The notes under the pieces are model-generated. The model ran no database searches. It saw only the letters and a program-made list of their open reading frames with translations, and was not told the DNA's origin. This document shows positions 7,915-46,919 of a DNA stretch of 64,000 bases, piece after piece. Each line of letters begins with the position of its first letter. The stretch's first letter is position 1. The DNA is from a marine bacterium AO1-C. GTDB taxonomy: Bacteria; Bacteroidota; Bacteroidia; Cytophagales; Microscillaceae. The position numbers and the translations under genes are program-made. The stretch lies in assembly GCA_001890965.1 (NCBI GenBank), contig MLAY01000008.1, forward strand, positions 552,341-616,340, read 5' to 3'.

Positions 7915-8056
7915 GGTTTTGTATTTTGTCTGGTAGATAGTTCATAGCATCTATGATGTTGTCAAAAGTTTTCAGTTAATCACTAGATGTAATTCTCAAA
8001 AACCAATCACCTGATACTATAGATTATATATTGCTATGAACTATCGACTCATCACC

Positions 8057-13504: not shown

Positions 13505-13509
13505 TTTTA

Positions 13510-14718: not shown

Positions 14719-14721
14719 TCA

Positions 14722-15276: not shown

Positions 15277-15511
15277 GCTTTTGCTAATTTGGGTTACACC
15301 TGTTTTAATGGTTACATTGTTTGATCGTCCAATAGTTTATAATATATGGTAAAACTCTTGAACCTTATAGCCATTTAGCAATCGTTTTGGAGATCACTTA
15401 ATTCAGGTAATATGATTGATTTAAAGCGAATTATTGTTTTCTAATTATTCTTCAGAAAACGAAATAAATCTTAGTTGGTTTAATGATTCACCAACTACTA
15501 AAAGCGAAGCA

Positions 15512-16246: not shown

Positions 16247-16378
16247 GCAGCTCATCATATATTGTTCAATTGTTTTATTGCTGATTCCTTCAACCAAGCG
16301 CAGCACAGCGGGGTTTACCAAGTATTACAGACTTAGCGAAACAGTCTCAAAAAAACTCAACAATTTAATCACCTAACA

Positions 16379-20697: not shown

Positions 20698-20871
20698 TTA
20701 TGTGGTAGTTTAAGTTTAAAACACAACAATTACTATAAATATAGTCATATGACTATTAAACTAGTAATAAGTAGAAAAGTTTCATGTCCAATATACTTAT
20801 TAACAACACATAAATAAGTTTAACCACAGGTTATTTGGATGATTTAAAAGATGTATTTACTCAACAAAGCA

Positions 20872-22068
20872 TTACAATTTGGCCTCAATTTCTTCTAATT
20901 GTTTTTGAGCTTTTTGCACAAACGATTTTACTTCCTTTTTGGCCAGGGTTACTACTTCTTGAGCCACAGGATAAGCTTGTTTATAGCGTTTCATTTTTAG
21001 CAACAAGCCCACCTTTGCATTGAGATTATCTACATTACGCTTTAGCTTGATAGCTCGATTTATCCAATGTAGGGCACTGTTTAAATGTTCCAAATCAGTA
21101 TATTTATTAGTGTACATCCAAGCAGCATATAGTAGGGCTATTTCGTCGTTGGTATGATCTAAAAATTTACGGGCATATTTTAAGGATTTTTTTTCATCGG
21201 GCAGGTAATATAAATACTCCTTTCGAGCAATGGCTTCTTTTGCTTCTTCAGGAGGAAAAACCATTTTTACTTTCTTCCGGTAATCAATCAATGCTTGTTC
21301 TCTTTCTGAATGAGGCACATTCATCGCATCTTCGTTCAGTGATTTGATTAGGTATTGGCTAACAATCTTTTTACCCAAAACTTGAGCAAAACTAGCTCGG
21401 TTGTCAAGAATGTAGTTAAACTCCTTTGAAGTAGTTCTCTTCAAATAAGCTTCTATTATTTTCCAGTTTTCTGGTTTCGCCCAGTTTGCTTTTTCCTGTT
21501 GAGCCAAGTACGCACTCAATGGTTTATCGTAGGGTTCATTTGCCAGGCTCAATGCTTTGATATAACGCTTTAGAAAATCGTTTTCTCTAGCTCCGGCTTT
21601 ATATCGCCTTTGTTGAGCCATCAATTGGGTTTTGGGGTCTAGGGCCTGACGAGCTGCATCTATAATTTTAGCTGCTCCGCCAGAGCCTTTGACAATATGC
21701 ACCAGATTTCCCTGGGGGTCAAAATAAAGCAAGGTAGGATATGATGTCACTTGGTACTTTTTGGCAAACGCAACGCCTTCTCCTTTTTCCATATCCAATT
21801 CGTAACTCACCAAGTGTTGATTATAAACATCTCCTACCTCTTTCAAAGGAAAGACCTTCTTCCTCAGGTATTTGCAAGGGCCACACCAGGTAGTATAAGC
21901 ATCTACAAATATGAATTTATTCTCTTTTTTGGCTTTCGTCTGAATTTCGCTCCAGGTACCTTTTTCAAATTTGATCCCTTGTCCAAGTACTACACTACTC
22001 ACCCAGGCAATAAGAGTGACCACACATAAAATCGTTCTCATATAATTTAAAAGTTTGATTGGTTTCAC
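20872..22068 (-). CDS. Thioredoxin-family protein; paralog 2 of 4 (most divergent)
   Basis: AYTTWCGPCKYLRKK motif. The start may be the internal M at 22041. No terminator copy downstream, unlike the other three. Confidence 0.7.
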   Translation of the reverse strand: MKPIKLLNYMRTILCVVTLIAWVSSVVLGQGIKFEKGTWSEIQTKAKKENKFIFVDAYTTWCGPCKYLRKKVFPLKEVGDVYNQHLVSYELDMEKGEGVAFAKKYQVTSYPTLLYFDPQGNLVHIVKGSGGAAKIIDAARQALDPKTQLMAQQRRYKAGARENDFLKRYIKALSLANEPYDKPLSAYLAQQEKANWAKPENWKIIEAYLKRTTSKEFNYILDNRASFAQVLGKKIVSQYLIKSLNEDAMNVPHSEREQALIDYRKKVKMVFPPEEAKEAIARKEYLYYLPDEKKSLKYARKFLDHTNDEIALLYAAWMYTNKYTDLEHLNSALHWINRAIKLKRNVDNLNAKVGLLLKMKRYKQAYPVAQEVVTLAKKEVKSFVQKAQKQLEEIEAKL

Positions 22069-22121
22069 ATAAAATACGTATTGTATTGACTAGACGCGAC
22101 TTATTTGTGTAAAGCAAACCA

Positions 22122-22158
22122 TCAAAAAAAGCCTATTTCTCGTAAGAAACAGGCCCTT
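22122..22158 (-). terminator. Terminator hairpin copy (gcctatttc-tcgtaa-gaaacaggc) downstream of thioredoxin paralog 3
   Basis: Same hairpin-plus-A-run unit as at 19465-19500, with one mismatch in the stem. Confidence 0.5.
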
Positions 22159-22178
22159 AAATATTGGTTGATTAAGTA

Positions 22179-23366
22179 TTATAACTTCGCATTGATTTTC
22201 TTTAGCAAGGCCTGTGCTCCTCCTGGACTTCCCCCTATTTTTTTGGACAAAGCAATAGATTCTTCCGCTACTTTTTTGGCTTCCTGATAACGCTTCAATT
22301 TATATAATAAGCGCGCTTGGGTACTGGTATTATACCAAGTCTTTTTTAGCTTCACCGATTTTTCGGCCCACACCAATGCTTTTTCCAGTTTTTGAGGATC
22401 ATTCGTAATTAAACTATACCTGGCCGCCATACCGCCTAAATCCTGAGAACCATTGCAATAATTATCATAATACTTGCAGACATACCGAAAAGCTTTTTCT
22501 TTATCTTTGTCAAGATAAAAGAACCAAAAATCTGCTTTAGTCAAGAGCTTTTCAACGTCTCTCTTTTGAACAAATACTTTTCTCAATCTTCGCTTCAATG
22601 AATCTAATTGGGCCTCACTTTTATCTTTAGAAAACGCTACTTTTTTCATGTCCTCTTCTAACACCTTTTCGATATAATTTTTCACGTTCTCTTTTTTCTT
22701 AGCCACTTGCTCAAACTTTGCTTGGTTTTTTAAGACATATTCAAAAGCTACTGCTGAAGGTTTTTCCACATATTGACTTATAAATTCCCAACCTTTGGTG
22801 GTGGCCCATTTGTCTTTACCCAGTTGGTTCAAGTATAGTGTAACGGGTTCAGTAATATCCTCGAAGGCAGTTTTCAAAGTCTTGATGTATTTCTCCAGGA
22901 ACTCATTGCTTTTTTCTCCTTTCTCAAAACGGCGTTGTAAAGTAAAAACCTGAGTTTCAGGGTTCAAGGCGTCTGCAGTCAGTTTCAGTAATATGTCAGC
23001 TGGCGCAGCCCCTCCAATTTTATGAACTATTTGGCCTTGGGGGCTAAAATATAGCAAGGTAGGATATGCACTTATCTTGTATTTTTTAGCAAAAGCAGGC
23101 CCTTCTCCCTTTTCTGTATTCACCTTATAAGACACAAAATGCTTGTTGAAAAAATCGCCTACTTTTTTTTGAGGAAAGACTTTTTTGGATTGCCACTGAC
23201 AGGGGCCACACCAAACAGTGTAGGCATCTACAAAAATGTACTTGTTTTCAGCTTTGGCTTTGGCTTTTATTTCCGTCCAGGTGCCTTTTTCAAACTTAAT
23301 CCCTTGAGCAATCGTGGTATTGGCAAGCCAACCTATCAGTATTAATGTATAGAATGTAACTTTCAT
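22179..23366 (-). CDS. Thioredoxin-family protein; paralog 3 of 4
   Basis: AYTVWCGPCQWQSKK motif. Same architecture as the others. Confidence 0.75.
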   Translation of the reverse strand: MKVTFYTLILIGWLANTTIAQGIKFEKGTWTEIKAKAKAENKYIFVDAYTVWCGPCQWQSKKVFPQKKVGDFFNKHFVSYKVNTEKGEGPAFAKKYKISAYPTLLYFSPQGQIVHKIGGAAPADILLKLTADALNPETQVFTLQRRFEKGEKSNEFLEKYIKTLKTAFEDITEPVTLYLNQLGKDKWATTKGWEFISQYVEKPSAVAFEYVLKNQAKFEQVAKKKENVKNYIEKVLEEDMKKVAFSKDKSEAQLDSLKRRLRKVFVQKRDVEKLLTKADFWFFYLDKDKEKAFRYVCKYYDNYCNGSQDLGGMAARYSLITNDPQKLEKALVWAEKSVKLKKTWYNTSTQARLLYKLKRYQEAKKVAEESIALSKKIGGSPGGAQALLKKINAKL

Positions 23367-23440
23367 CTTTTGAACAATTTAATTGATAACAACCTACACA
23401 GTTCTATACTTGATGGCTTTAAAAAATGGAGCCGATTTAT

Positions 23441-23475
23441 AAAAAAAGCCTGTCTCTCGTAAGAAACAGGCTCTT
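23441..23475 (-). terminator. Terminator hairpin copy (gcctgtctctc-gtaa-gaaacaggc) downstream of thioredoxin paralog 4
   Basis: Hairpin 23448-23471 with an aaaaaaa run on the plus strand. Confidence 0.55.
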
Positions 23476-23495
23476 AAATCTTGATTGATTAAGTA

Positions 23496-24668
23496 TTATA
23501 ATTTCGCATTGATTTTTTCTAACAATGCTTTGGTTTCTTTGGCATTTTGCTTGGCTTCTTTGGCCAAAGCTATAGATTCTTCAGCAACCTTTTTGGCTTC
23601 TTTGTAACGCTTAAGCTTAAATAACAAGTGGGCTTGAGTATCGGTATTGAACGATTTTTTCATCAATTTTACTGATTGTTGTGCCCAGCCTAAAGCCTTT
23701 TCTAAACGCTCAGTATCATTGTACTTTTTGTAATAGCCCCACGCAATGCTGTTAAACTCATAGGCATTGTCACAGTACTTATCAAAGTACTTGCAGGCAT
23801 ATTGCATGGCTTTTTCTTTGTCTCCAGCATAAAACATATATTCGGCCTTGGCAATGTGCTTGTCGGCATCTTTCCCAAATACATCCTTTAATTTCTTTTT
23901 GAAAGTAGTCAGCTGTTTTTTGTCTTTGGAACGAGCTACTCCGCGCATATCCATCATCAACACACGAGTGATATACTTCTCTACTTTTTCTTTGCTTTCA
24001 GCTGCTTTTTCAAACTTAGCCTGGTTTTTCATTACATACTCAAAAGCCTCTGCAGAAGACTTACGTACATACTTGCTGATAAACTTCCAACCTTCGGCAG
24101 TAGCCCATTTGTCTTTGCCCAATTGCGCCAGATACATGTCAGCAGGCTTGCTGAAATCCTCATAGGCACCTTCTAAAGCAGCAATATATTTTTGCAGAAA
24201 CTCATTACTTTTTTCTCCTTTTTCAAAACGACGCTTCAAAGTAAATACCTGGGTCTCGGGGTTTAGCGCATTGGCTGCAGCTTTTAGTAGTACCTTAGCA
24301 GGGTAGGCACCTACGGTTTTATGCACCATTTCGCCTTGGGGGTTAAAATATACCAAAGTAGGATAAGCTCTTACTTTGTATTTTTTTGCAAAGTCAACTC
24401 CTTCTCCTTTTTCCATATCCATTTTAAAAGAGATATAGTTTTTATTGAAAAAGTCACCTACTTCTTTTTGAGGGAATACTTTTTTGGATTGCCACTTACA
24501 AGGGCCACACCAGGTAGTATAGGCATCTACAAAAATGTGCTTGTTTTCGGCTTTGGCTTTAGCCTTAATTTCAGACCAGGAGCCTTTCTGAAAGGCAATT
24601 CCTTGAGCACCTGCGGTAAAGGCGGCTAGTAGTAAAAAAGCAAAGAGGGGTAAAAATTTATGCTTCAT
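23496..24668 (-). CDS. Thioredoxin-family protein; paralog 4 of 4
   Basis: AYTTWCGPCKWQSKK motif. ATG at 24668 (MKHKFLPLFAFLLLAAF, a signal peptide) is preferred over the longer ORF start at 24731. Confidence 0.75.
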   Translation of the reverse strand: MKHKFLPLFAFLLLAAFTAGAQGIAFQKGSWSEIKAKAKAENKHIFVDAYTTWCGPCKWQSKKVFPQKEVGDFFNKNYISFKMDMEKGEGVDFAKKYKVRAYPTLVYFNPQGEMVHKTVGAYPAKVLLKAAANALNPETQVFTLKRRFEKGEKSNEFLQKYIAALEGAYEDFSKPADMYLAQLGKDKWATAEGWKFISKYVRKSSAEAFEYVMKNQAKFEKAAESKEKVEKYITRVLMMDMRGVARSKDKKQLTTFKKKLKDVFGKDADKHIAKAEYMFYAGDKEKAMQYACKYFDKYCDNAYEFNSIAWGYYKKYNDTERLEKALGWAQQSVKLMKKSFNTDTQAHLLFKLKRYKEAKKVAEESIALAKEAKQNAKETKALLEKINAKL

Positions 24669-24866
24669 TGTGTATTGTAGTTTAAGGGTGATTGATTTAT
24701 GTTGAGTTAAATTAATGATTTTTTGCCTCAATGATGTTCTTCCAGCCCAAATAGTTGCTTTCTTCGCAAGAAATTATGCTTTCTTTAGTATTTAGCCTGC
24801 TTTTTTTTCTTAACCTTTTACCTTTGCATCCGGTTATTTAAGCAATCAAAATAAGTATACTGGTTT

Positions 24867-27468: not shown

Positions 27469-27819
27469 TTAGGAAGGTAATGGATAAGTCAGTTTCTTGT
27501 CCATTACTTTTTGGAATATTACCTTTTCCACGGCTGCCCAATCTTCATAACCTAAAAACTGTACAATCTTTTCTTGATTGATCGTATTGAGTTTTCCCAA
27601 ACATTTGGTAGTGGCTTCACTATTAAACAATCGTTTGAGGGTAGAAATGCTTATGTCGGTCATAGAAGATAAATTCCTAAAATCCTTATAGGTACAATCT
27701 TCAGGCTTTTGGGGTATTCTTTTGCAATAGGTAAGACCGCTGGCAGGTCTTCCCAGCAGTTCATTAGCCCTTTCCAAGATCATTAGGGCAATTGTTTTTT
27801 TTAAAATTCGGGTTAGCAT
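27469..27819 (-). CDS. Small HTH-like protein; paralog A of a pair that brackets the lanthipeptide biosynthetic genes
   Basis: Shares with 33125..33442 the blocks MILE(R/T)A, DFR(N/Y)LS..T.ISI(S/T)TLKRLFN(S/C)EA and QKI..FLGY..W..VE.VI. The S..T..RL block resembles an HTH recognition helix. Confidence 0.5.
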   Translation of the reverse strand: MLTRILKKTIALMILERANELLGRPASGLTYCKRIPQKPEDCTYKDFRNLSSMTDISISTLKRLFNSEATTKCLGKLNTINQEKIVQFLGYEDWAAVEKVIFQKVMDKKLTYPLPS

Positions 27820-28096
27820 ATCGGTATTGTTAGGTATAGACAACTGCAAACGCAGGCACTCTATAGGTTTACGAAATAGCTGCTCGAATTGAAGGAAATG
27901 GATCACTTATTTCTTAGAAGCTGTTTGAGTTTTAGTCATAGAAATTGTTATAGGTTATTTTGAGTCTAATTAAAGCTCATTTTTGATACATAGCCTGTAG
28001 CTACGTGCGAAAAAACAGCTAAAACGTAGGCCCAAAAGAGCCATCACAAAAATATTGAATAGAATTCGAACAGCTTCTGAGACATTCTCTCAACTC

Positions 28097-31000
28097 TTAA
28101 TCATTTTCAGCCATCACCTCTGGCTGATTCGTTTGTTTTTTCTTCGCTCTGGCAATAGTGGAACGATAATGCTGAAAAAGAAAGTCGTACAATACTACTT
28201 CGTGGATGCGTTGTTTAGAACGTAGTAATCGATTAACCATCATATGGATATAACTCGGCAACATGATATTTAGTTGACCTTGCGTTCCATTTGCCTCACA
28301 AATAGTGTGTATTTCTTGAATAATACCTTTCCAGGCTTGAGAACGTTGCTCAAAACAATCAAATGCGGCAGCCAGTGGGTGGGTATTATCGTATGAAGTC
28401 ACCATTATTTCTTGCACCTTAGTACGGGCTTCGCGATATTTTTGACTCAACTGTTTCTTGGCCGCTTTGTCGGTAAAGTTAAAATCTCGGGCAAAATTGT
28501 CTTTCATGTTTTCTATCAACTGCAAGCGCTGGTGCAAATCCAACCCAAAATCGGCCATCAATGCATCTGCACCTCTCAAAGCCAACAACCAACGAAATTC
28601 TTCTATTTCTTCGCCTTCGAATAAGCTTAAAATATTGGCTACTGCCTGACTATCATGGCAAAATAGTTTCTCTGAAAGCTCCATTGTGGCCGCTCCATAG
28701 CGTTCCACTTCGCGCACATAAGTATCGGTATGGAAGTTACTCACCAAACCAGTGCTCACGTAAGGTTCCAGGGCTTGATGCAGCAAGGCAATTACTTGGG
28801 CATAAAACAAGCCTTTACCCTTAAAACGCACTCTCAAATGGCTTTTTGGATCTATATAACGCAAGAAAAACCATTCTTCAATGATTTGTTCCGACAAAAG
28901 TTGATCGGCTACTGGTTTGATCACTTCGGTAATGATTTGATCAGCGATCTTAGCCCCACAATATATTTTTAGATAAAACCATTCTGACCCTAAAGCAAAT
29001 TCACGGGTAATTTGCTGGTCAGTAACCGTAAACAGGTTGGTATTAGTTGGCGACTGGACATCAGCCTGATTTGCATTGGTGGTATAATGAAAAGGCACCA
29101 CAATTTCATTGGTAAAGCTTCCTTCTGGGCCAGTGGCCAACAAGTTTTGTTCATGAAACAAAGATTCCTCTAAAACCGCCACATAAGAAGGTTTGTACAA
29201 GCTCAACAATATTTTGATGGGCCATAGCTGCGATAAATCCAATGGAAGTTTATTGTCTCCAAAAACAGCCGTTATATGTTGGGGTATTTGCAATCGGTCA
29301 CGCAGAGCCTGCATTTTTTCTACTTTGTGCGCATCGCTTGCATCTCTTACCTCCTTTAAATCTTCGGCTTTCACTTTCCATCGGGCCTTGCTCAAAATGG
29401 CTTTGCCCAAGGTTACTCTTGGCAACCAATCAGCATTTTCGAGATGCAGCCAACTCCAGGTTACACCATTGGCAAATTGGGTTTGCAAGTCACACAAGAA
29501 GTAGTATACTGGAACCGATTTCGTTTCATAATTATGAGCAGAACTTAAACGAGGGATTACTTCTTTGCCCAGTTTTTTAGAAAATAAAATCAAACGATCA
29601 TCGTGGATTTTCAGCCATAAATCAGCCAAAGCAATGGTATATGCTTCGTCTACTGCGGTAGTAGCCATTACTGGAATCTCATAATCGCGTAATACCGCTC
29701 GTTGCAATACATTGCCCAAACGAGCCATGGGCAAATGCACAATCTCTGCCAAAATTGCTTCAGGAAAGGCCGCTTGTTCTTTCTCAAAAGTATGTTTTAG
29801 CAAATCGGTGAGTTCTTCTCCTTCATAACAAAAACGCCCCAACATTTTACCTACTGATGCTCCGCCAGCTGAGGTAACCGCTACCTGAAACTTCCCCTGA
29901 TCTACCGCCTCGGGCGATGCAGCTAACACATTGCCTAAAAAGCTAAAAGTAGTTCCCAACTGAAGGTCTTCAGGGCGAGTAAATAGTTTTTCCAGTTCGT
30001 CTTTTGACAATTCTATATTGGCCTTGCCCTGGTGCAAAGCTTCATAATATTTTTCTTGTAAATAATGCGTCCAGGCACTCAGTTCTAAAGAAGCGTTAGA
30101 AGCTCGGCCATTTTTTGCCAATACCAAGTCATCTACCAAAGGAGTAAAGTCTGCTGAGTCTTGATGCTTAAGTGGATATCCCAGGCCAACTTCACTATCT
30201 AAGGCCTGTAGCAATGGTACGGCTTGTTGCTCATACTTTTGCCGAAAATCTACCTTAAAACTCTCTAAGTCTAGATTGGGAGCATTACCTTTGATCAAAA
30301 ATAGCCATTCTACTGCTTCAACTATTTCTTTGGCTACTTGTGGGTGCAAAGTATTTTGGATGGTAGCTTTTTGCATATCTACTTGAAACAGCTCTCCCGC
30401 CTTTATTTCTTGGCCTTTTGCATCCAATTGTTGCGCGAGTGCTTCGATTGCTTGCTGGATTTGGCGATAACGATCTACCTCTACTCCTAGCGGTTGGTGA
30501 TCAATCGCCTGCATTTGTTGAGCGATTTGCTCTAAAGCGTTTACCAATGTCCCCTGTGAAGGAATTGTTTGAAGAATTTCGATTAAACGCCCTAAAAACT
30601 CTTCTCCGGTAACCGTGGGTTCTAACTCACTTAACAATAACTGACTCTCAATGAGTGCCTCAATAAACTCACTGGCTTCTTCCAGGGTAGTTTCGTCGTC
30701 TACAAACAGGTTGGCCAAATCTATAATTTTGGCCCCTTGTTGGGCTTGCTGCAAGACTAACTCTATAAATTCTGAATTGTCTACATCTACCAAATGTAAA
30801 GTTCGTCCTTTTTCCTGCAAACGATATTCGAGGTAGCGTAAATAGTCTCCTACTTTATATAAGGTAGGATTGGGGTAAAATTTTAAATGAGGTTTGATTG
30901 CGGGCCTTTCGGCCAATTGAATTGCAAAATTGCCAAGAAACCCCATGTCGAGTCGGGTATGTCGTTGATTATGTTCGTTCTCGGCAAACTTTACCTGAGT

Positions 31001-31333
31001 TTGTTGCTCAAACTTACCTACCGATATTCCTGCCATCAACCCAAAAGGGGTAGGCCGAAACGACATACGATACAAGTACTTTAGAAATGATATTTTGAGC
31101 TTCTCTTCTTCTTTGGTGCTTTCTACGCCGTTTTTGAACCATTGCAGTAAAGCCTCTAGCAAACTAGGTGATGACAAATAAATTGCCTCTCGAATGATGG
31201 GGTTTTCTAATAGTTTTTCGATCGATATCGCTTCAACATCAGCAAAAGAATTAAAGGGTAAGAGTGGGGTTCTTAAAACGTAATAATCCAGTGGGCGAAT
31301 GTGGTATTTTTTAGGTTGGTTAGTTTGTTTCAT
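28097..31333 (-). CDS. Class I lanthipeptide dehydratase LanB (full-length, unsplit: glutamylation plus elimination domains)
   Basis: ~1080 aa. N-terminus (MKQTNQPKKYHIRPLDYYVLRTPLLPF) is the hallmark start of lantibiotic dehydratases. Its size is consistent with an N-terminal dehydratase domain plus a C-terminal SpaB_C-type elimination domain. It follows LanC after a 25-bp gap. Confidence 0.85.
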   Translation of the reverse strand: MKQTNQPKKYHIRPLDYYVLRTPLLPFNSFADVEAISIEKLLENPIIREAIYLSSPSLLEALLQWFKNGVESTKEEEKLKISFLKYLYRMSFRPTPFGLMAGISVGKFEQQTQVKFAENEHNQRHTRLDMGFLGNFAIQLAERPAIKPHLKFYPNPTLYKVGDYLRYLEYRLQEKGRTLHLVDVDNSEFIELVLQQAQQGAKIIDLANLFVDDETTLEEASEFIEALIESQLLLSELEPTVTGEEFLGRLIEILQTIPSQGTLVNALEQIAQQMQAIDHQPLGVEVDRYRQIQQAIEALAQQLDAKGQEIKAGELFQVDMQKATIQNTLHPQVAKEIVEAVEWLFLIKGNAPNLDLESFKVDFRQKYEQQAVPLLQALDSEVGLGYPLKHQDSADFTPLVDDLVLAKNGRASNASLELSAWTHYLQEKYYEALHQGKANIELSKDELEKLFTRPEDLQLGTTFSFLGNVLAASPEAVDQGKFQVAVTSAGGASVGKMLGRFCYEGEELTDLLKHTFEKEQAAFPEAILAEIVHLPMARLGNVLQRAVLRDYEIPVMATTAVDEAYTIALADLWLKIHDDRLILFSKKLGKEVIPRLSSAHNYETKSVPVYYFLCDLQTQFANGVTWSWLHLENADWLPRVTLGKAILSKARWKVKAEDLKEVRDASDAHKVEKMQALRDRLQIPQHITAVFGDNKLPLDLSQLWPIKILLSLYKPSYVAVLEESLFHEQNLLATGPEGSFTNEIVVPFHYTTNANQADVQSPTNTNLFTVTDQQITREFALGSEWFYLKIYCGAKIADQIITEVIKPVADQLLSEQIIEEWFFLRYIDPKSHLRVRFKGKGLFYAQVIALLHQALEPYVSTGLVSNFHTDTYVREVERYGAATMELSEKLFCHDSQAVANILSLFEGEEIEEFRWLLALRGADALMADFGLDLHQRLQLIENMKDNFARDFNFTDKAAKKQLSQKYREARTKVQEIMVTSYDNTHPLAAAFDCFEQRSQAWKGIIQEIHTICEANGTQGQLNIMLPSYIHMMVNRLLRSKQRIHEVVLYDFLFQHYRSTIARAKKKQTNQPEVMAEND

Positions 31334-31358
31334 TTGGTAAAGAATTAAGTCATCATTT

Positions 31359-32615
31359 CTAAGCAATATCAAGCAAAAAGGCTCGCTCCCAATCGGTATT
31401 ATTTTCGTTATCCAAGAAACCCAGCATTACCATTGCAATCCCGGCATAGCCTTCTAAGAAACTGTAATCTTCTACCCAGTAAGGCTCTTTGGTATCAGGA
31501 TTCACTTTCATTCGTTTGTAATGTTCTTGTGCTTCGTTTTCTTGGTATTGTGTTACCAATAGGTTTAGCCAATGATCAGCAGCTTGTTGAAAGGCTTCTT
31601 CTTGTGTTGCCTGGTACAACTTACGATACATGTGGGCTATGCCTCCACCGCCATGGCAAAAGCCTGCATCCATCAGATTATCTTGAGGACTAAGGTGTAC
31701 CCCCGCTTCCTGAGGAGTTGCTTTTTGGGTAGTTTGTAGCGCAATCGCAATGGCCTTTTGCTTCCATTGATCCTGATCTAGGGCTTTTGAGGCATGCATC
31801 AAGGCTACCACAATGCATAAATCTCCGTAACACCAAGCCAACCGACCTTGTCGCTCATTGGCGGCTCCTTCTATAATCGTCAGCGGAAAGCACTCTGGTT
31901 GGTCTTCAAGCTCTTGCTGCACTAGCCAGGTCACGCTTTGCTCCAGCAATGTTTTACTTACTTCGGGTAAAATTTCGTTTTGAAAAGCCTTAGCCAAAAA
32001 GCTAATAATTCCAGGAATGCCATGGGCTAGCCCCAGATTGTAGCGAACATGGTGTTGGTATTCTTCATCTATGGTAAAATGGTCTTGCCAATAAGTAAAT
32101 CCATTTTCTTTGATGGCAGTTTGGTCTAAAGAAGTAACAATTTGTTCTAGTTGTGTCCTTGCTGAATCTGCGTGAGGTAAACGCTCGAGGTAATAAATAC
32201 CTTTGCTCACTAAACCATACAGCGTATCATAATTTTTATGTTGGCTATTTTGTACCAACGATGCCTCTATCATATCATCTAAATCGCTCAACATTTCGGC
32301 ATCTTCAGGATCAAGAATTTCTATGTTTACCAAATGTTGTAGCAACCAGGCTGCCCCCAGGTATTTGCCTGCCATAGCTACCTCGGCATGGGCTATCTCG
32401 CTATTTACTTGCATAAACTCCTCCAACGCCTCCACAGCTCCCTGGGCAAACTTATCGGCTTGCGATGCATCAAATAAGCTTGCATAGGCATACAGTAATG
32501 ATTGGGCCGCGTGATAATTGCTAAACAGGTAAGGAGTAGTAGGCAATGGATGCTTCTCGAACTTATTGAGTAGTTTTTGGACGATGTTTTTTTGAAGCTC
32601 AGGGGAAGACCACAT
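31359..32615 (-). CDS. Lanthionine synthetase C-like cyclase LanC
   Basis: Zinc-ligand and catalytic motifs GLAHGIPGI, LAWCYGDLCI and GFCHGGGGIAHMY (GxAHG / WCxG / CHG). Confidence 0.85.
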   Translation of the reverse strand: MWSSPELQKNIVQKLLNKFEKHPLPTTPYLFSNYHAAQSLLYAYASLFDASQADKFAQGAVEALEEFMQVNSEIAHAEVAMAGKYLGAAWLLQHLVNIEILDPEDAEMLSDLDDMIEASLVQNSQHKNYDTLYGLVSKGIYYLERLPHADSARTQLEQIVTSLDQTAIKENGFTYWQDHFTIDEEYQHHVRYNLGLAHGIPGIISFLAKAFQNEILPEVSKTLLEQSVTWLVQQELEDQPECFPLTIIEGAANERQGRLAWCYGDLCIVVALMHASKALDQDQWKQKAIAIALQTTQKATPQEAGVHLSPQDNLMDAGFCHGGGGIAHMYRKLYQATQEEAFQQAADHWLNLLVTQYQENEAQEHYKRMKVNPDTKEPYWVEDYSFLEGYAGIAMVMLGFLDNENNTDWERAFLLDIA

Positions 32616-32699
32616 ATTTCAGAGAATGAATTGGCAATGAATAAAAAATGATCACCCCCTTTGATAGCAAAGGAGGTGATTGAAAGCAACGCTTAATGT

Positions 32700-32924
32700 T
32701 TATACTGGGTAGTTAGATGGAGTTCTGCATTGTCTAGAGTCGTTGCAGGTAAACTGAGAAGCAGCACAAGGACCACCCATGCTACGGTCACAAGTCATGT
32801 CTTCTACACGAGTAAGATACTGACAAGCTTCTCCACCTTGAATAGTTTTCAGGTTCAAATCGTTTTGACCTTTGGTAAAATTCTTTAATGTACGTTTGTT
32901 TACTTTGAATTTGTTTTTGCTCAT
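32700..32924 (-). CDS. Lanthipeptide precursor peptide LanA (double-glycine leader, Cys/Ser/Thr-rich core)
   Basis: 74 aa. Leader MSKNKFKVNKRTLKNFTKGQNDLNLKTIQGG with an NDLNL (FNLD-like) box and a GG site. Predicted core EACQYLTRVEDMTCDRSMGGPCAASQFTCNDSRQCRTPSNYPV has 5 Cys and 8 Ser/Thr. Immediately upstream of LanC and LanB on the same strand. Confidence 0.7.
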   Translation of the reverse strand: MSKNKFKVNKRTLKNFTKGQNDLNLKTIQGGEACQYLTRVEDMTCDRSMGGPCAASQFTCNDSRQCRTPSNYPV

Positions 32925-33124
32925 GATTAAAATTAGATTTAGTTAACATACCTACTCTGTTTCCGATTTTCGGCGTACTCGGTCTTAGAAACTGTGTAGA
33001 CTTTAATGAAAAATGGCTTATAACATTTCTTGTCACTAAAACCACACAATTTCACAATCCAAAGATCAAAAAGAAAATAAATATATTTCCCTCACAAAAT
33101 GACCAAATAAAATTTGGATAAAGA

Positions 33125-33442
33125 TCAATCTTTCTTATCAATTAGATTATCAAGAATGACCCCTTCGACCTCGTCCCAGGTGGCATATCCTAAAAAATGA
33201 GCAATTTTTTGTTGGTTTTTGGCATTACAAAATCTTACTCCTTGAGCCTCACAGTTGAAGAGACGTTTGAGCGTAGTAATGCTAATCCCTGTAAGGTAAG
33301 ACAGGTATCGAAAATCGGCGTGTCGGCAAGTCTGCGTGTCGGTAGCTAATTTGGTTTGCTGTTCACAGAATGCTTGATTTTTTGCGGTAGCAGTTTCCAA
33401 AATCATTTGAGCCACTTGCTGTTTAAGGAGATGGTATAGCAT
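33125..33442 (-). CDS. Small HTH-like protein; paralog B, immediately upstream of the precursor gene
   Basis: See 27469..27819. 105 aa. Confidence 0.5.
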   Translation of the reverse strand: MLYHLLKQQVAQMILETATAKNQAFCEQQTKLATDTQTCRHADFRYLSYLTGISITTLKRLFNCEAQGVRFCNAKNQQKIAHFLGYATWDEVEGVILDNLIDKKD

Positions 33443-33730
33443 GATGTTTTGTGATTTATGATGAGAATATGCCTGACATATTCTTTTTTCATATGTTGTT
33501 TTACTTAACTATTTGTTACACTTATTATGATTTTAAGTCAGGGTCTTCGTTAGAAAGTTTGATAAAATTTTAATAAAAATATGGTATTTTATCTGGATAA
33601 GCTTGAGGATTGGCTTTTTTTATAGCAAATGGGGGTGGTGAACTAGCAACTTTTTAAAACGATGGATATTTTGATGTATCGGCTTGTTTAAGAAAACAGG
33701 AAAGGATGTTGGGGACTTGCCCCAACAAAA

Positions 33731-35041
33731 CTACTTCACCAAAACCCTTTTTTCCATCAACAATCGTTTCTCTACATCCCATACTTTCACCTGATAAGAG
33801 CCTTTAGGTAGCACCAAATAAGAAGGCTTATCTAGTTGCTTGAGGTGGATTTGGTCTATGGGCACTGCATTTTCAGCATCACTTGGTTTAAAAGCTTGCA
33901 CCAAACACTCTTGCTTGATATTCCACTTTTTAGGATCAACCTTGTAGTACTTTTTGGCGGTCCCCCAACTGAGCCAGGTTGGGCGTCCGTTTTTGAGTTG
34001 GGTACGGGGCAAAAAGACTTGCACATCTACGTAGTTTACAAACAAATTGCCCGTATCGGCTACCCAAGGTTTGCTTTGATACTCAAGCACAATGGGGCTA
34101 TTTTTTAACCAACCTTGTTTGATCACCTGACGATAATACACATGTTCATATTTTTTATGAAAACGCTCGGTCATCTCAGTTTGATCTATAGTAAAAGGGT
34201 TGATTCCGGTCAATTTGATGAACTCCTCGCCCATTTTTACCCAACTTTTCTTCTGGTGGTTTTCTTCTATATTCTGGATACCTCCATATACCAGCATCTT
34301 GGCTTCAGGATTTTTCTTAAGCACCTCCTGTAAGTGCATCGCTTGCTGTTTAGATCTTGAGGTACCTCGTTTGTTGGCCTCGTAAGGCAATACTTTAAAG
34401 CCTAGCTTGATGGCTTGGCGAATCAAGTTACTCATCATAGGTTCTAAAGTAAAATACCCCGAATTGGCCAATGGATAACCTCGTTGGTTCAGCAAAGTAT
34501 CTTTATGGCTCAATGTCTCGACCATCAAGAAACGAAAGCCTTGTTGGTATAAACCAGCTAATAGTGTCGCAGCAAAGGCTCGGTGCTGGCCCACATGGTG
34601 CGCTTCATTGATCATTATTACTTGCTCACGCTTGGCTCTTTGGAGAATGTAGTTTTTAGCATCAGGCACCTTTACTTGCTTACTATCCAGCGATTTGACT
34701 ACTATTTTCTTTCTACCCTCAATCATCAAGGCTTTGTCAAAATAGTAAAGTGCGCTATCATAATTCGTCACAAACGAATTGTAAAACCCTTGGTATTGGG
34801 CATAAAAACTCTTGGTATCAGGATCGGCATTGGCCACAAGGCTTTCGTTGGCTTTGAGCGCAACTACTGGCTTGAGATAATTAGGGTTAGAGCGATCTTG
34901 TATAGCCTCTCTCACTATACTATCTATTTTGCTCATGAGTTCGAACTGAGCAAATGCTTGTGTTTGAAAAAATAGTATTCCACAAAGGATACTACCTATC
35001 ACAAAAGCTTTTCCGGCGGATAATTTCGCAAATTTGATCAT
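33731..35041 (-). CDS. Secreted protein of uncertain function encoded inside the lanthipeptide operon (possible Tiki/TraB/erythromycin-esterase-like hydrolase)
   Basis: Signal peptide (GILFFQTQAFAQ). INEAHHVGQHR and VYGG segments weakly resemble the paired GxxH motifs of the Tiki/TraB/PrgY/ChaN superfamily. Assignment is tentative. Confidence 0.4.
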   Translation of the reverse strand: MIKFAKLSAGKAFVIGSILCGILFFQTQAFAQFELMSKIDSIVREAIQDRSNPNYLKPVVALKANESLVANADPDTKSFYAQYQGFYNSFVTNYDSALYYFDKALMIEGRKKIVVKSLDSKQVKVPDAKNYILQRAKREQVIMINEAHHVGQHRAFAATLLAGLYQQGFRFLMVETLSHKDTLLNQRGYPLANSGYFTLEPMMSNLIRQAIKLGFKVLPYEANKRGTSRSKQQAMHLQEVLKKNPEAKMLVYGGIQNIEENHQKKSWVKMGEEFIKLTGINPFTIDQTEMTERFHKKYEHVYYRQVIKQGWLKNSPIVLEYQSKPWVADTGNLFVNYVDVQVFLPRTQLKNGRPTWLSWGTAKKYYKVDPKKWNIKQECLVQAFKPSDAENAVPIDQIHLKQLDKPSYLVLPKGSYQVKVWDVEKRLLMEKRVLVK

Positions 35042-35343
35042 TACTTTAAAACAGTTTAAAATTTTAATGTTTTATCACTAATGGGGCTACCTCTTAGAAG
35101 AATGACTTTAATAGATAAGTATAAATTAGGAGAGACTTGTTAATTATGATTTATTGGGTGTACCTAAGAGATTAGTCTCCAGGTAACCTTACTTGAGAGA
35201 TAAAAAAAGTGGAGAGATTTTATGATTTGATTCGGGTAATAGGCTGGCTTTTAAGAAAATGTGCTGATAATAAAGCAAAAAAAATTGTAGGCAATTCACA
35301 TCATTGCCTACAACCTTTTATATCGTTACGAAAGCGAAAGGGC

Positions 35344-37539
35344 TTACCCTCCTAATTCTAACTGGTTTTTCACCAAGTCGTAGTACATACCTTTTTGGGC
35401 AGTAAGTTCTGCGTGAGTTCCTTGCTCTACCAGTTTTCCTTTCTCGAGTACAATGATTTGGTCAGCATTTTTTACCGTACTCAATCGGTGGGCAATCACT
35501 ACTGCGGTACGTCCCTTGAAGAACTCATTTAAGTTCTCCATAATGATCTTCTCATTGTTGGCATCCAGAGCCGAAGTAGCCTCATCAAAAAACAAAAATT
35601 CAGGGTTTTTATACACTGCCCGAGCAATCAAAATCCGTTGTTTTTGTCCACCACTTACCCCAATTCCATCCTGGCCAATTTTGGTGTTATAGCCCAAAGG
35701 CAAACCTTCAATAAACTCTTGAATGTTGGCCACTTGTACTGCCTGACGCAAACGCGCCTGATCTATGATTTCGTCACTTACTGCAATATTACGAGCAATG
35801 GTATCAGAGAAAATAAATCCATCTTGCATGACAGTACCACAACGCTCTCGCCACATACGACCATTGAGGTTATTCAACTGAATACCTTCAAGTTTAATAA
35901 CACCTTCTACCGTATCATAAAACTTAAGCAAGAGTTTCAGAAGCGTAGTTTTTCCACTACCACTGGTACCTACCACTGCGGTAATTTTCCCTTCAGGGAT
36001 GGTAAAAGAAACATCTTCTAAAACCTTAGGAGAATGAGGTCCTTCGTATTGAAAGGTAACATCTTCGAGGTGAATATTTTTACCTTCAGGCAAAATCGTA
36101 ATCTGAGGGGTTCCATCTTCTTCCTCGTTGTCTTTGTCATGAATTTCACCCAATCGCTCCAGACTTATCTTGGCATCCTGCATTTCATATACAAAGTTGA
36201 TCATTTGGCTAATAGGGCCATCCAACTGCCCAATAATAGACTGTACTGCCAACATCATACCCAGCGTCATAGAACCATTCACTACTGCGTAGGCTGCCGA
36301 AAACGTGATCAGAATGTTTTTACTTTGGTTGATAAATAAGCTTCCTGCCTGCTGTATTTGCTCCAAGGTTACACTCTTTACATTGATCTTAAACATTTTG
36401 GCCTGAATACGCTCCCATTCCCACCGCTTTTGTTTTTCACAGTTGTTTAGCTTAATCTCTTGCATACCATTAATCAAGTGAATCAAGCTACTTTGGTTAC
36501 GTGACATTTCCTGAAAACGCTTGTAATCCAGTTTTTTACGCCAGTTTAAGAATGCCAATACCCAGGCAATGTACAAGATACTTCCTACTAAAAATATCAA
36601 AAAGATATAGATATTGTAAAAGGCCAGAATGACCCCAAATACTATAAAGTTGAAGAAGGAGAATAGGATAGAAAGCGTGGAAGTACTCAGAAACTGCTCA
36701 ATGCGGTGGTGGTCGTTGATTCGTTGCAATAAATCTCCGATCATTTTGGTGTCGAAAAAGCCAATGGGGAGTTTCATCAACTTGATCAAGAAATCGGAAA
36801 TCAGTGAGATATTGATCCGGGTACTGAGATGTAGCAGTATCCACCGCCTTATAAAGTCCACTGCTGTTTGGCTAAAAAAGAGTACAAATTGGCCAATTAG
36901 CACAATGTAAATAAAATCCAGATTGCGGGTATTAATCCCGATATCTACTACCGATTGGGTAAGAAATGGGAAAATCATACTGAGCAAACTGCCCAACAAT
37001 AATCCCAAAAACAATTGGAATAAAAACTTACGATAACGCACCAAATACCCCAACAAAAAGCGCCAACTAGCCTTATTAATCTTTTCGTCAGTTTCTTTTT
37101 GATAAAACTCTGGGGTGGGTTCCATCAACATGGCTACCCCTTTGTCTTCGCCTCCTTCCCGAGTACTTGCCCAGTGTTTTAGAAATTGCTCTCGCTCATA
37201 TGTTACTAATCCTACTGCTGGGTCAGATACAAATACTTTCTTTTTTGTGACTTTATATACCACTACAAAGTGCTGTTGATTCCAGTGGGCAATAAAAGGC
37301 ACTGGAGCTTCATCGGCTAGTTGCTGGAAGGTAGTTTTTACACCAATAGTACGAAAACCAACTGCTTCGGCAGCATCGCTAATACCCAATAAAGAAACGC
37401 CTTCACGGGTAATATAGCTTTGCTCACGCAGGTATTGTAATGAATATTTTTTACCGTAATGTTCTGAAATAATTTTGACACATGAGGGGCCGCAGTCCAT
37501 CATGTCTAATTGTATATAGGAGGGAAATTTCTTCGCCAT
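35344..37539 (-). CDS. Peptidase C39 domain-containing ABC transporter (LanT/bacteriocin-processing exporter)
   Basis: N-terminal C39 motif MDCGPSC plus downstream His/Asp. Six-TM core. Walker A GTSGSGKTT, ABC signature LSGGQKQRILIARAV, Walker B LFFDEATSALD. Confidence 0.85.
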   Translation of the reverse strand: MAKKFPSYIQLDMMDCGPSCVKIISEHYGKKYSLQYLREQSYITREGVSLLGISDAAEAVGFRTIGVKTTFQQLADEAPVPFIAHWNQQHFVVVYKVTKKKVFVSDPAVGLVTYEREQFLKHWASTREGGEDKGVAMLMEPTPEFYQKETDEKINKASWRFLLGYLVRYRKFLFQLFLGLLLGSLLSMIFPFLTQSVVDIGINTRNLDFIYIVLIGQFVLFFSQTAVDFIRRWILLHLSTRINISLISDFLIKLMKLPIGFFDTKMIGDLLQRINDHHRIEQFLSTSTLSILFSFFNFIVFGVILAFYNIYIFLIFLVGSILYIAWVLAFLNWRKKLDYKRFQEMSRNQSSLIHLINGMQEIKLNNCEKQKRWEWERIQAKMFKINVKSVTLEQIQQAGSLFINQSKNILITFSAAYAVVNGSMTLGMMLAVQSIIGQLDGPISQMINFVYEMQDAKISLERLGEIHDKDNEEEDGTPQITILPEGKNIHLEDVTFQYEGPHSPKVLEDVSFTIPEGKITAVVGTSGSGKTTLLKLLLKFYDTVEGVIKLEGIQLNNLNGRMWRERCGTVMQDGFIFSDTIARNIAVSDEIIDQARLRQAVQVANIQEFIEGLPLGYNTKIGQDGIGVSGGQKQRILIARAVYKNPEFLFFDEATSALDANNEKIIMENLNEFFKGRTAVVIAHRLSTVKNADQIIVLEKGKLVEQGTHAELTAQKGMYYDLVKNQLELGG

Positions 37540-44024: not shown

Positions 44025-46802
44025 TTAGCGAATTACAAATCCGTTGCCTCTTCCTTTGCCAAAGGCTTTGATAGAATACGCCAACGAAATCATAAAATAT
44101 CTTCCAATGGTTTGTACCCGACGCTCCTCTACAAAATTCAATACACTGTTTCGAGTAATCCCCTGGTTACGGTTCAAAATATCAAAGGCAGTGAACTTTA
44201 CCTGTAAGCGGTTTTTCATAAAAGATTTGGAAAGTGACGCTTTGAACAAAGGAATCGTTTGAGCACCTCCAGCAAAAGCTTCCCCAGTATATACCGATTG
44301 GGTATAAGAAGCTTCCAATTGCCAGGTTTTACCAATATCTAAGTCACCTTCTACGAAATAATCTTCTTGCATAAAGTTTCTATCCAAATCGCTTGATTCA
44401 GAATAAGCCGTAAAGTTTTGCGCAAAACGAGCACCTATACGTACATCCATTTTTCGCTTTTTAAAATTCTCTAAGCTTACTCTTATAGAGTTGGTGCGAC
44501 GACTCACCGTATTTTCAACATCATTTACAAAGATTAGCCCTTGGTTATACATTCCATTGGCACGGATACGAATCTTCGCTGCCATCCATCGCATGGGCGT
44601 GCTAAACGAAGCATAAGCATTGATGGTCGCATCGTAATCTACATTCACAGGCTGCGAAATTTGGTTAAGGTTTGCCAGGGTAGTCACTTTGTTGGTAATT
44701 CTGTTTTGGGTGAGGCTACCATAGGCTCCTCCAAAAAAGCTTGTCATCGAGAATTGATCAAAGGAATGATAATTTAGATTGACACGATGTACATACTCTG
44801 CATCCAAATTGGGATTTCCCTGATACAATCTGCTAGGGTTGCTATTGTCTACCACAGGGCGCAATTGCTGCATGTTGGGCGCGTTCATATTGGTAGAGTA
44901 GTTAAAGTTTACACTAGACACACCACCCAGGCTCCAACGAAAACGTAAGCTGGGCAATACATTCAGGAAATTACGATTGATGCGTGTTTCTGACGTAGTA
45001 ATTACCCCATTTAAAGTAGAGTATTGTACACTGGTTCCCAAAGTCAAATTAAACTTCTTGGTACGATACATATAGTTTAAGTATCCACGATCAAAGGTAA
45101 AAGCGTTGGTGTAGCGATTACTCAAAGAACCAATAAAGGTTTCGGGTTCAGTGGTCTGATCATAAAAATCTTTGAAAGAGTTGTTGTCAAAGTTGTTGCG
45201 TTGGTATTTCAGTTCTATCGCCTGACCTTTGCCAAATACTGGCTCAATAAACGACGCCTGGATATCGTAATTCATTCGGCGGTTATTCAAAGGTTGGCGT
45301 TGATCAATGATATTGTTGAATATGGGATCTAAAAAGGTTTGGTTGTTAACGATTCTATCTTCACTGGTTACATTTTGCATACCCAATTGCCCTTGCAATA
45401 CCAATACTCGGCCTTTGCGCCCAAAACGCTTACGATATAACAATCGGGTGCTTAGTCCAAAATCATTACTTTGCGCTTGGGTAGTGCTTCGGGTTTGGCT
45501 TTGTTGTACCTCATCCCCTTGTGCATTATTAATCAGGTTTGTACTTTGACTAAAAGCATCGTTATTGCCTTCATTGTACATTGCGTCTACATAAAAGCGC
45601 AAGCGAGAAGATTTGCTAAACTTATGGTCTAAACGAATGTTGGTTCGATGATTCCAATTACGTAAAGTACGATCTTGCAAACTATTGGTAAAGAAGCTAC
45701 TGGAATCTAAGAAGGTTTCTCGAGCTGTAGATTGATTGATTTCGTTGCCTAAGAAATTATAAAAGTAATTGGCGTGTAAGCTCGTATTTTTAGTGAGGTC
45801 TATATTCAGGTTGGCTCCCAATACGTTGGTATTCGACAAGGCCTGGTTGGAGTTCATTGCCAATAAAGCCCCTAACCCGCTACTTCCGTTGAGCTGAATA
45901 GAACCTCCTCCCCCACTGCTCATATTGCTAAAGCCTCCCATAAAATTGATATAATCCATAAACGAGAAGGGACGTTTATTGATATTATTGGCAGACCCTA
46001 AAAACGAAAGTTGCGTCTTGGCACTAAAGCGATTGAGGTTGAACCTACCATCATAACGATTGTCGGTGCCTCCACCCGCCATCACATTCCCAAAGAATCC
46101 ATTCTTGCGGTCTTTCTTAAGTTTTAGGTTGATTGTTTTCTCCCGATTGCCATCATCGACTCCAGTAAATTTCGACATCTCCGATTGGTCATCAAATACT
46201 TGTACCTTGTCTATAGCATCGGCTGGTAGATTTTTGGTGGCAATTTTAGGGTCTTTGCCAAAAAACTCTTTGCCATCTACCAGTACTTTTTTCACTTCTT
46301 TTCCCTGGGCCTTAATCTTTCCATCACGGTCTACCTCAACTCCTGGCAATTGCTTGAGCAGCTTTTCTACATTGGAGTTGGGGCGGGTACGAAATGCTTT
46401 AGCATTGTACTCAATTGTATCCTCTTTGATAACAATGGGTACCCGATCATCTTTGACTACGATCTCGTCAAGCACTTTTTTGTCTTCCTGAAGCGTGAGA
46501 TTGCCTAAGGCAAGGTCTTTACCTTTTTCCAAAGTAAGAGCCTTGTTCAAAGTTTTGAAGCCAGTAAAAGTTATCTGAAGGTTATAATTACCTGCTTTTA
46601 CCCTTGGTAAAGTAAAAACACCTGCATTATTGGTACTACCAAATTTATTTAAAATAGAATCTGGTAAGTTCATCAGCATCACAGTGGCACCTGGCAATGC
46701 TTTACCTTCTGGGTCAATTACTTTTCCACTGATTTTTTGGGCTTGGGCCGTTGCCCCCCACCCGAGGATGAATAAAATGATGTATAGTGAAGTATTTTTC
46801 AT
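44025..46802 (-). CDS. Outer membrane beta-barrel protein with CarbD_reg N-terminal domain; paralog of 5173..7914
   Basis: 925 aa, collinear with copy 1 over its full length. The N-terminal ~250 aa are nearly identical at protein level and about 85% identical at nucleotide level in the segment compared (46150-46460 versus 7241-7560). Confidence 0.75.
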   Translation of the reverse strand: MKNTSLYIILFILGWGATAQAQKISGKVIDPEGKALPGATVMLMNLPDSILNKFGSTNNAGVFTLPRVKAGNYNLQITFTGFKTLNKALTLEKGKDLALGNLTLQEDKKVLDEIVVKDDRVPIVIKEDTIEYNAKAFRTRPNSNVEKLLKQLPGVEVDRDGKIKAQGKEVKKVLVDGKEFFGKDPKIATKNLPADAIDKVQVFDDQSEMSKFTGVDDGNREKTINLKLKKDRKNGFFGNVMAGGGTDNRYDGRFNLNRFSAKTQLSFLGSANNINKRPFSFMDYINFMGGFSNMSSGGGGSIQLNGSSGLGALLAMNSNQALSNTNVLGANLNIDLTKNTSLHANYFYNFLGNEINQSTARETFLDSSSFFTNSLQDRTLRNWNHRTNIRLDHKFSKSSRLRFYVDAMYNEGNNDAFSQSTNLINNAQGDEVQQSQTRSTTQAQSNDFGLSTRLLYRKRFGRKGRVLVLQGQLGMQNVTSEDRIVNNQTFLDPIFNNIIDQRQPLNNRRMNYDIQASFIEPVFGKGQAIELKYQRNNFDNNSFKDFYDQTTEPETFIGSLSNRYTNAFTFDRGYLNYMYRTKKFNLTLGTSVQYSTLNGVITTSETRINRNFLNVLPSLRFRWSLGGVSSVNFNYSTNMNAPNMQQLRPVVDNSNPSRLYQGNPNLDAEYVHRVNLNYHSFDQFSMTSFFGGAYGSLTQNRITNKVTTLANLNQISQPVNVDYDATINAYASFSTPMRWMAAKIRIRANGMYNQGLIFVNDVENTVSRRTNSIRVSLENFKKRKMDVRIGARFAQNFTAYSESSDLDRNFMQEDYFVEGDLDIGKTWQLEASYTQSVYTGEAFAGGAQTIPLFKASLSKSFMKNRLQVKFTAFDILNRNQGITRNSVLNFVEERRVQTIGRYFMISLAYSIKAFGKGRGNGFVIR

Positions 46803-46919
46803 GGGTTATATGGTTTTTTAGTAGATAGTTGATAGTATCAAGTCAATGGTTCATAGTCTGCAATACTAGCTAGACTAAATTTTGATACTGTGGTCTGTTG
46901 GCCGTTAACCGTAGACTCT

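Follow-up and report, generated by a model that had tools for sequence, protein, structure and literature searches.

In the Bacteroidetes, which supply nearly a quarter of class I LanCs, LanA precursors often carry an LxLxKx5L leader that ends in a double glycine (GG), clusters often include a gene for a C39 protease, and split as well as full-length LanB proteins occur (Walker et al., 2020; PMC7268733). Few lanthipeptides of this phylum have been characterized. Among them are the pinensins of Chitinophaga pinensis and the peptides Ped15.1 and Ped15.2 of Pedobacter lusitanus NL19, class I products from which the C39 domain LahT150 cleaves off the leader, as related in papers citing the original work (Bothwell 2021 and Caetano 2020, cited in PMC12328550 and PMC9680876). 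Here we analyse a locus of the marine bacterium AO1-C (taxid 1905359; Cytophagales, Microscillaceae-like) that lies in a stretch of 64 kb, referred to in the following as the window. An earlier note on this DNA had proposed a seven-gene operon for a peptide that is made by the ribosome and post-translationally modified (RiPP). All seven minus-strand open reading frames (ORFs; BKI52_25190 to BKI52_25215 plus OJJ18874.1) are present where the note had placed them, co-directional and contiguous, and all except the ABC transporter are labelled "hypothetical protein" in the databases. We show here that five of them form a conserved unit, and with a probability of roughly 0.78 we read this unit as a class I lanthipeptide module (XRE-like gene, lanA, lanC, lanB and an XRE-like paralog) that works by the mechanism proposed below. 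Its genes are:

33125..33442, minus strand: XRE-like small protein 1 (BKI52_25210, 105 aa), a probable pathway regulator whose gene opens the module
32700..32924, minus strand: lanA precursor (BKI52_25205, 74 aa), a 31-aa leader and a 43-aa core, directly upstream of lanC
31359..32615, minus strand: LanC cyclase (BKI52_25200, 418 aa), matching PF05147 LANC_like at 5e-38
28097..31333, minus strand: LanB dehydratase (BKI52_25195, 1078 aa), with Lant_dehydr_N and Lant_dehydr_C
27469..27819, minus strand: XRE-like small protein 2 (BKI52_25190), last gene of the module and paralog of small protein 1

The described systems resemble this locus to different degrees. Like Ped15, in the form in which citing papers describe it, the AO1-C system comes from a Bacteroidota host, has separate LanB and LanC proteins and a GG leader assigned to a C39 domain, and its LanB is single as PedB is, in contrast to the split PinB1/PinB2; the Ped15 operon encodes several precursors, whereas AO1-C has one. 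The pinensin system is also class I and from Bacteroidota, but its LanB is divided into PinB1 and PinB2, while that of AO1-C is one protein of 1078 aa. Nisin and subtilin from Firmicutes have a Glu-tRNA-dependent LanB, a zinc-dependent LanC and homologous catalytic residues in common with AO1-C, which lacks the nisin-type FNLD leader, LanP subtilisin, protease-free LanT, LanRK and LanI/LanFEG. No LanP, LanFEG/LanI or LanRK was detected among the scanned ORFs of the window (36 of the 41 of at least 150 aa), and the remaining five, all below 180 aa, are too short for LanP, so that the earlier note was right about its absence. The thalassomonasins and viridisins share a Gram-negative marine origin, class I LanB and LanC enzymes and GG leaders; they belong to another phylum (Gammaproteobacteria), have several precursors per operon and show no detected core similarity to AO1-C. 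Within the Bacteroidetes, the locus falls into the GG-leader subgroup, as GG is invariant and an active-type C39-ABC gene lies adjacent, though not conserved with the module. It differs from that class in the bracketing XRE-like paralogs and in that the exporter is not a constant member. The combination of a GG leader with a C39 domain in a class I cluster, which the earlier note had taken as unusual, is typical of Bacteroidetes (PMC7268733; Ped15 peptides), and its full-length LanB does not set the locus apart from a phylum in which both LanB forms are found (PMC7268733). Since the layout is the documented norm of the phylum, the picture of lanthipeptide biosynthesis stays as it was. What distinguishes the module is confined to its core peptide, the XRE-like paralogs on either side and an RNA motif in the lanA leader, DUF805b.

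The extent of the module follows from comparison with nine related loci, all of which are arranged as small protein, lanA, lanC, lanB, small protein. DNA similarity between the window and locus L004, which has an unrelated genomic context, is limited to positions 27538-33462. With loci L001, L003 and L007 the similarity takes in the downstream flank and breaks off at about 33460-33590. These limits, together with the gene order, define a conserved unit of five genes, not seven, spanning 27469-33442. The nearest genome carrying it is the Microscillaceae metagenome-assembled genome (MAG) UBA11690. Locus L008 shares the window flanks on both sides, and here the flanking genes are 64-93% identical to those of AO1-C (exporter 93%), while the module proteins (27469-33442 against L008:10001-15723) reach only 52-67%, which argues that the module has its own evolutionary history. 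The module in AO1-C and L008 has been either exchanged or is evolving much faster than its neighbourhood. Judged by its sequence, it is real, intact and probably a functional class I lanthipeptide set, and the strong profile matches of the cluster genes are not due to chance. The minimal unit to clone would be the five genes, or only lanA, lanB and lanC. Given a barely studied marine Cytophagales lineage and few characterized Bacteroidota lanthipeptides, the module is a reasonable target for heterologous expression.

LanA consists of MSKNKFKVNKRTLKNFTKGQNDLNLKTIQGG (leader) followed by EACQYLTRVEDMTCDRSMGGPCAASQFTCNDSRQCRTPSNYPV (core). The core holds five Cys and eight Ser/Thr, and the count of eight and the double-glycine leader agree with the earlier note. 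The leader follows the motif F6-x-V8-x-K10-x5-F16 ... I28 Q G30 G31 (F6-K-V8-N-K10-RTLKN-F16 in the window, L6-S-L8-K-K10-RTLQN-F16 in L008) and corresponds to LxLxKx5L, with F or V standing for L at the hydrophobic positions. Hydrophobic residues are also found at -4 and -7 from Gly30-Gly31, positions at which the C39 domain LahT150 requires them, as quoted in PMC12328550. The leader is kept across the LanA family and GG is invariant. Five orthologs of 72-74 aa are 78-86% identical and a divergent L008-type sequence is 52% identical (tblastn), so that the 74-aa ORF, whose conservation in relatives the earlier note had made a test of its claim, has six further family members. All five Cys as well as T38, T44, T59 and S63 are invariant in the seven members including L008 (core pattern C-x3-T-x5-TC-x7-C-x2-S-x2-TC-x2-S-x2-C), though LanB and LanC of the family are only about 55% identical. 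This is the pattern that putative ring-forming residues would be expected to show. A six-frame scan of the window for GG-leader or LxLxK-type peptides returned lanA only. A LanA profile search of 5.8 billion proteins yielded just six clusters at 90% identity, none of them named, a genome scan with the same profile found a single GTDB genome, and the AO1-C core has no detectable similarity to any named peptide. Because the family is tiny and has no named member, the product is probably new, in line with the expectation of the earlier note that it had not been characterized, and very probably represents a new lanthipeptide scaffold.

LanB is full-length and unsplit, as the earlier note had described it, and contains both dehydratase domains: Lant_dehydr_N (PF04738, 7e-160) and Lant_dehydr_C (PF14028, 6e-71) are each matched over the full profile in Pfam, and the elimination domain matches TIGR03891 (2e-66, full profile) in NCBIfam. 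LanB was aligned to NisB (4wd9, 4e-43), to 9g04 (6e-69) and to MibB (5ehk). The glutamylation-site positions R-x3-R-x-T-PFGL, RLD, QVD and GRF are kept, including the equivalents of NisB R83, R87, T89, D121, D299 and R464, and so are the elimination-site positions FLRYxDPxxHxRxR and EVERYG. LanC is a stand-alone cyclase whose alignment to NisC and 8byk matches GLAHG with the catalytic His, WCYG, FCHG with the Cys-His pair and the YD motif, so that the three zinc-ligand motifs reported before are in place. The catalytic positions compared in LanB and LanC are conserved, which was the check that the earlier note had set beforehand.

Upstream of the module lie the other two of the seven genes and a hairpin:

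35344..37539, minus strand: C39-peptidase ABC exporter of the PCAT/AMS type (OJJ18874.1, 731 aa), with Peptidase_C39 (1e-35), ABC_membrane and ABC_tran in Pfam
35279..35319, minus strand: terminator-like hairpin of 17 pairs with a T-run, just 3' of the exporter stop codon
33731-35041, minus strand: gene for a 436-aa protein, the "secreted unknown" of the earlier note

The C39 domain recognized in the exporter before carries the full catalytic set. Gln10, Cys16, His90 and Asp106 coincide in alignment with the catalytic positions of the ComA peptidase domain (PEP) and PCAT1, and the exporter should therefore be proteolytically active. Its domain order (N-terminal C39, transmembrane domain, nucleotide-binding domain; Pfam and NCBIfam) is that of PCAT1, ComA and LahT, from which it differs in its Gram-negative host, in the lack of an adjacent membrane-fusion or outer-membrane partner and in having a predicted substrate. 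No other catalytically complete C39 domain occurs among the lineage contigs compared. The exporter is likely the leader peptidase and exporter of the module, linked or not, and its C39 domain is a logical reagent for leader removal. The 436-aa protein adopts an erythromycin-esterase (EreA)/ChaN-like fold and belongs to a family that has no Pfam model and 2,419 representatives at E up to 0.001. Around its gene no repeats or mobile-element signatures of note were seen, and no tie of the protein to lanthipeptide biosynthesis was found. The gene is an unrelated, AO1-C-specific neighbour and can be ignored when cloning.

The two small proteins that bracket the module are paralogs (43% identity, E 2e-26), and each keeps its own position across the loci, small protein 2 being downstream of lanB in all of them. 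Small protein 2 is annotated with 104 aa; translation from the ATG at 27819 gives 116 aa, and this longer N-terminus is kept in orthologs. The family comprises 18 clusters in the database searched, all from this lineage. More distant members (about 37% identity) were found at locus L015 (1009-3772), directly upstream of a DUF805b motif and a 68-aa GG-leader peptide; behind this peptide comes a grasp-with-spasm ATP-grasp maturase (TIGR04192, 7e-35), a graspetide context. The family thus occurs at GG-leader RiPP loci of two chemical classes, which fits a role as pathway regulator. XRE-type regulators are found in other lanthipeptide systems, LtnR and CylR2 being examples. AO1-C encodes a third paralog (BKI52_14815) that is closest to the L015 members, and therefore probably has a graspetide locus elsewhere.

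Three candidate control elements surround lanA:

33090..33117, minus strand: block 1, CCAAAT-TTT-ATTTGG-TCATTTTGTGA, 3' of the stop codon of the first small gene, a candidate operator or promoter element
32949..32983, minus strand: block 2, in the lanA leader, a match to the DUF805b RNA motif (Rfam RF02914) that stops 24 nt short of the ATG
32651..32680, minus strand: 13-bp hairpin followed by a U-run, directly 3' of the lanA stop codon, a probable attenuator, terminator or transcript stabiliser before lanC

Blocks 1 and 2, both in the spacer that separates lanA from the first small gene, are invariant even in L008. Block 1 is nearly invariant in an alignment of five loci including the divergent L008, and its palindrome CCAAAT-N3-ATTTGG occurs once in the window. 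Between block 1 and DUF805b, AO1-C has an insertion of about 66 nt (about 32984-33050, minus strand) that is missing in the other four loci. The region 5' of the first small gene and the spacer between lanB and the second small gene are little conserved. A sigma-70 promoter scan was uninformative, as expected because Bacteroidota use other promoter motifs, and GC content revealed no compositional island at the cluster. The hairpin after lanA has a predicted folding energy of -20.1 kcal/mol (z -3.7) and is found in all five loci, with compensatory changes in 5 of its 13 pairs and a clear U-run in the window only. A hairpin in this place, after lanA and before the enzyme genes, is also known from nisin-type systems.

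DUF805b is the only Rfam match in the window (cmscan 41.4 bits against a gathering threshold of 35.6, E 2.4e-8, full length 1-35/35). It shares the 4-bp stem, the 12-nt loop and the AGAGUAGG tail with RF02914, and the stem covaries across loci (CCGA/UCGG, AAGC/GCUU, AAGG/CCUU). The motif is also found upstream of the precursors in L001, L008 and L015, and its core pattern occurs once in each of ten precursor-bearing loci and in none of five exporter-only loci. We had considered block 2 as an operator specific to the module and rejected this, as it matches the Rfam motif and precedes many unrelated genes. Here RF02914 precedes a lanthipeptide precursor, and in the literature searchable we found no link of the motif to RiPP or bacteriocin-like peptide genes. 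Scanning metagenomes with the core pattern (loci L016-L135, e.g. L065:9792-10250, L071, L098, L079 and L132) returned at least 124 instances. The 4-bp stem is complete in 76 of 123 and has three of four pairs in 25 more; an ATG follows after 15-29 nt in 101 of 119 cases, and in 61 of 119 the downstream ORF is at most 130 aa long, many of these products being secreted/signal-peptide, Cys-rich or GG-leader peptides. Such siting at a fixed distance before small peptides may give the orphan motif a functional context. The GG-leader peptides among them resemble bacteriocins or RiPP precursors, and L117:122-966 holds three tandem motif-peptide units.

Taken together, the following pathway is proposed. 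LanB would bind the Bacteroidota-type leader (F/L-x-V/L-x-K-x5-F/L) and, using Glu-tRNA, would glutamylate Ser/Thr residues of the 43-residue core and then eliminate glutamate. LanC would then join the invariant Cys, five in number, to the dehydro residues, so that up to five (methyl)lanthionine rings could form, and the C39 domain of the exporter may cut after Gly30-Gly31 during transport across the inner membrane. The exporter would probably serve the module whether it is adjacent, as in AO1-C and L008, or unlinked, as in UBA11690. The DUF805b leader element and the two XRE-like proteins probably govern lanA expression, and the hairpin behind lanA would probably lead to an excess of lanA transcript over lanCB, as in other lanthipeptide operons.

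Two other readings concern the neighbouring genes. In the seven-gene operon of the earlier note every gene would contribute to one dedicated lanthipeptide pathway. The genes are indeed co-directional and contiguous, a GG leader needs a C39 peptidase and an intact one is present, and in L008 the exporter directly adjoins the first small gene, 146 bp apart and without the 436-aa gene in between. However, the 436-aa gene is found in AO1-C only and is absent from all nine related loci, its family has more than 2,400 representatives and an EreA/ChaN fold, and the exporter of L008 is decoupled from its module (93% against 52-67% identity). In UBA11690 the exporter ortholog, which falls into the same 90%-identity cluster, lies on contig DMXI01000372 (L012) with the upstream block known from the window (DUF885, TK, Uma2, Trx-NHL, lipase) and beta-lactamase and esterase genes after it, while the lan module is on DMXI01000182 (L007), and paired metagenome contigs show the same split. 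The adjacency, seen in AO1-C and L008 only, is thus a lineage-specific juxtaposition of two conserved blocks, and judged by these sequences the exporter is a lineage-conserved, housekeeping-like gene and not a constant member of the module. The strong hairpin with its T-run behind the exporter suggests a separate transcript, and most of the seven genes are separated by intergenic gaps of 200-300 bp. One operon of seven contributing genes is therefore highly improbable. That the adjacency is a coincidence, such that an unlinked protease and transporter remove the leader and carry out the export or the modified peptide stays cell-associated or periplasmic, is a better candidate and still unlikely. 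L004-type loci lack a C39 gene in a range of 10 kb, and in L001-type loci only a dead C39-like domain stands beside the module: a 554-aa C39-like/VKOR/thioredoxin fusion directly upstream of it (L001:7448-9112, L003:1988-3652, L007:7445-9112), in which Cys, His and Asp are all replaced and which therefore cannot process the leader. Unclustered lanthipeptide proteases are a known phenomenon (PMC8960859). These points are countered by the canonical C39 features of the leader, GG with hydrophobic -4 and -7 residues, by the exporter being the sole source of a complete C39 domain in the lineage contigs with an ortholog more than 90% identical in the module-bearing MAG, and by the lack of an alternative peptidase in the window. 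The fusion protein could act as a binder of the GG-leader peptide and link it to the formation of disulfides, a relevant point given the odd Cys number; homologs of the fusion and of the upstream genes of these relatives were not found in a scan of the window.

Several observations weigh against the five-gene lanthipeptide module as we read it. The product is predicted from its genes, as are its dehydration and ring topology, and any bioactivity would be putative. Cys34 is N-terminal to every Ser/Thr of the core, so that at least one ring would have reversed polarity, or Cys34 is free or held in a disulfide. At the elimination site the equivalents of NisB R786 and E823/R826 are kept in an aligned range that excludes the equivalent of NisB His961. 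The link between exporter and module consists of adjacency in two of four lineages and the need for a GG peptidase, a task that another protease could fulfil, and neither an outer-membrane-crossing partner (HlyD/TolC) nor immunity genes were found among the scanned window ORFs. The lack of an HlyD or TolC partner also favours a coincidental exporter. The small proteins, probable pathway regulators, have a five-helix XRE-type fold, and their DNA binding is predicted. The earlier note had called them HTH-like paralogs, and of this the paralogy and the XRE fold hold; no sequence match to a helix-turn-helix (HTH) family model such as HTH_3 or HTH_31 was obtained (Pfam and NCBIfam at E up to 0.01, NCBIfam up to 10). 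More generally, neither Pfam nor NCBIfam assigns a family to the 436-aa, 105-aa, 74-aa and 116-aa products, and at E up to 10 NCBIfam gave nothing meaningful for any of these four. DUF805b, finally, is an orphan motif of general occurrence and is not lanthipeptide-specific. The odd number of Cys and the position of Cys34 could also mean that the module is a relic or that its product is only dehydrated or held by disulfides instead of lanthionine bridges; the VKOR-thioredoxin fusion, disulfide-forming machinery, adjoins the module in relatives, and many Gram-negative class I clusters are silent in their native host (PMC9680876). We give this reading scarcely any credence, as no ORF is disrupted, LanB and LanC keep their catalytic motifs, and the five Cys and four Ser/Thr have stayed invariant in a family whose enzymes have diverged to about 55% identity. 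The five-gene lanthipeptide module remains the preferred reading.

A further-reaching interpretation is put forward tentatively, and we regard it as doubtful. The lineage-restricted XRE-like paralogs and DUF805b may constitute a dedicated control device for genes of exported GG-leader peptides, DUF805b then being a cis-regulatory element that serves, throughout the Bacteroidota, small secreted peptides as well as bacteriocins and RiPP precursors; if true, the motif would gain its first functional context. Separately, the product might have a new topology, either of five rings or of lanthionines mixed with disulfides, in which one ring starts from Cys34 with reversed polarity.

Some neighbouring genes of the window deserve mention. 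At 19522-24731 (minus strand), a tandem array of four paralogs codes for secreted thioredoxin-like proteins of about 390-410 aa (Thioredoxin_2/7, DsbH-like), some of which have TPR repeats at the C-terminus. The array is syntenic with the lan module in L001, L003 and L008 and absent beside L004, and is therefore probably unrelated to it. On the plus strand, 11792-18142 encodes an eCIS_core protein (11792-13504), a 405-aa protein, a PP2C phosphatase (15434-16246) and a protein-kinase-like protein (16379-18142). Two paralogous gene pairs are located at 5173-8806 and 44025-47801 (minus strand), each combining a protein of about 915-925 aa, with CarboxypepD_reg and an OMP_b-brl_3 outer-membrane barrel, with a Porph_ging/PNGase_F-II_N protein.

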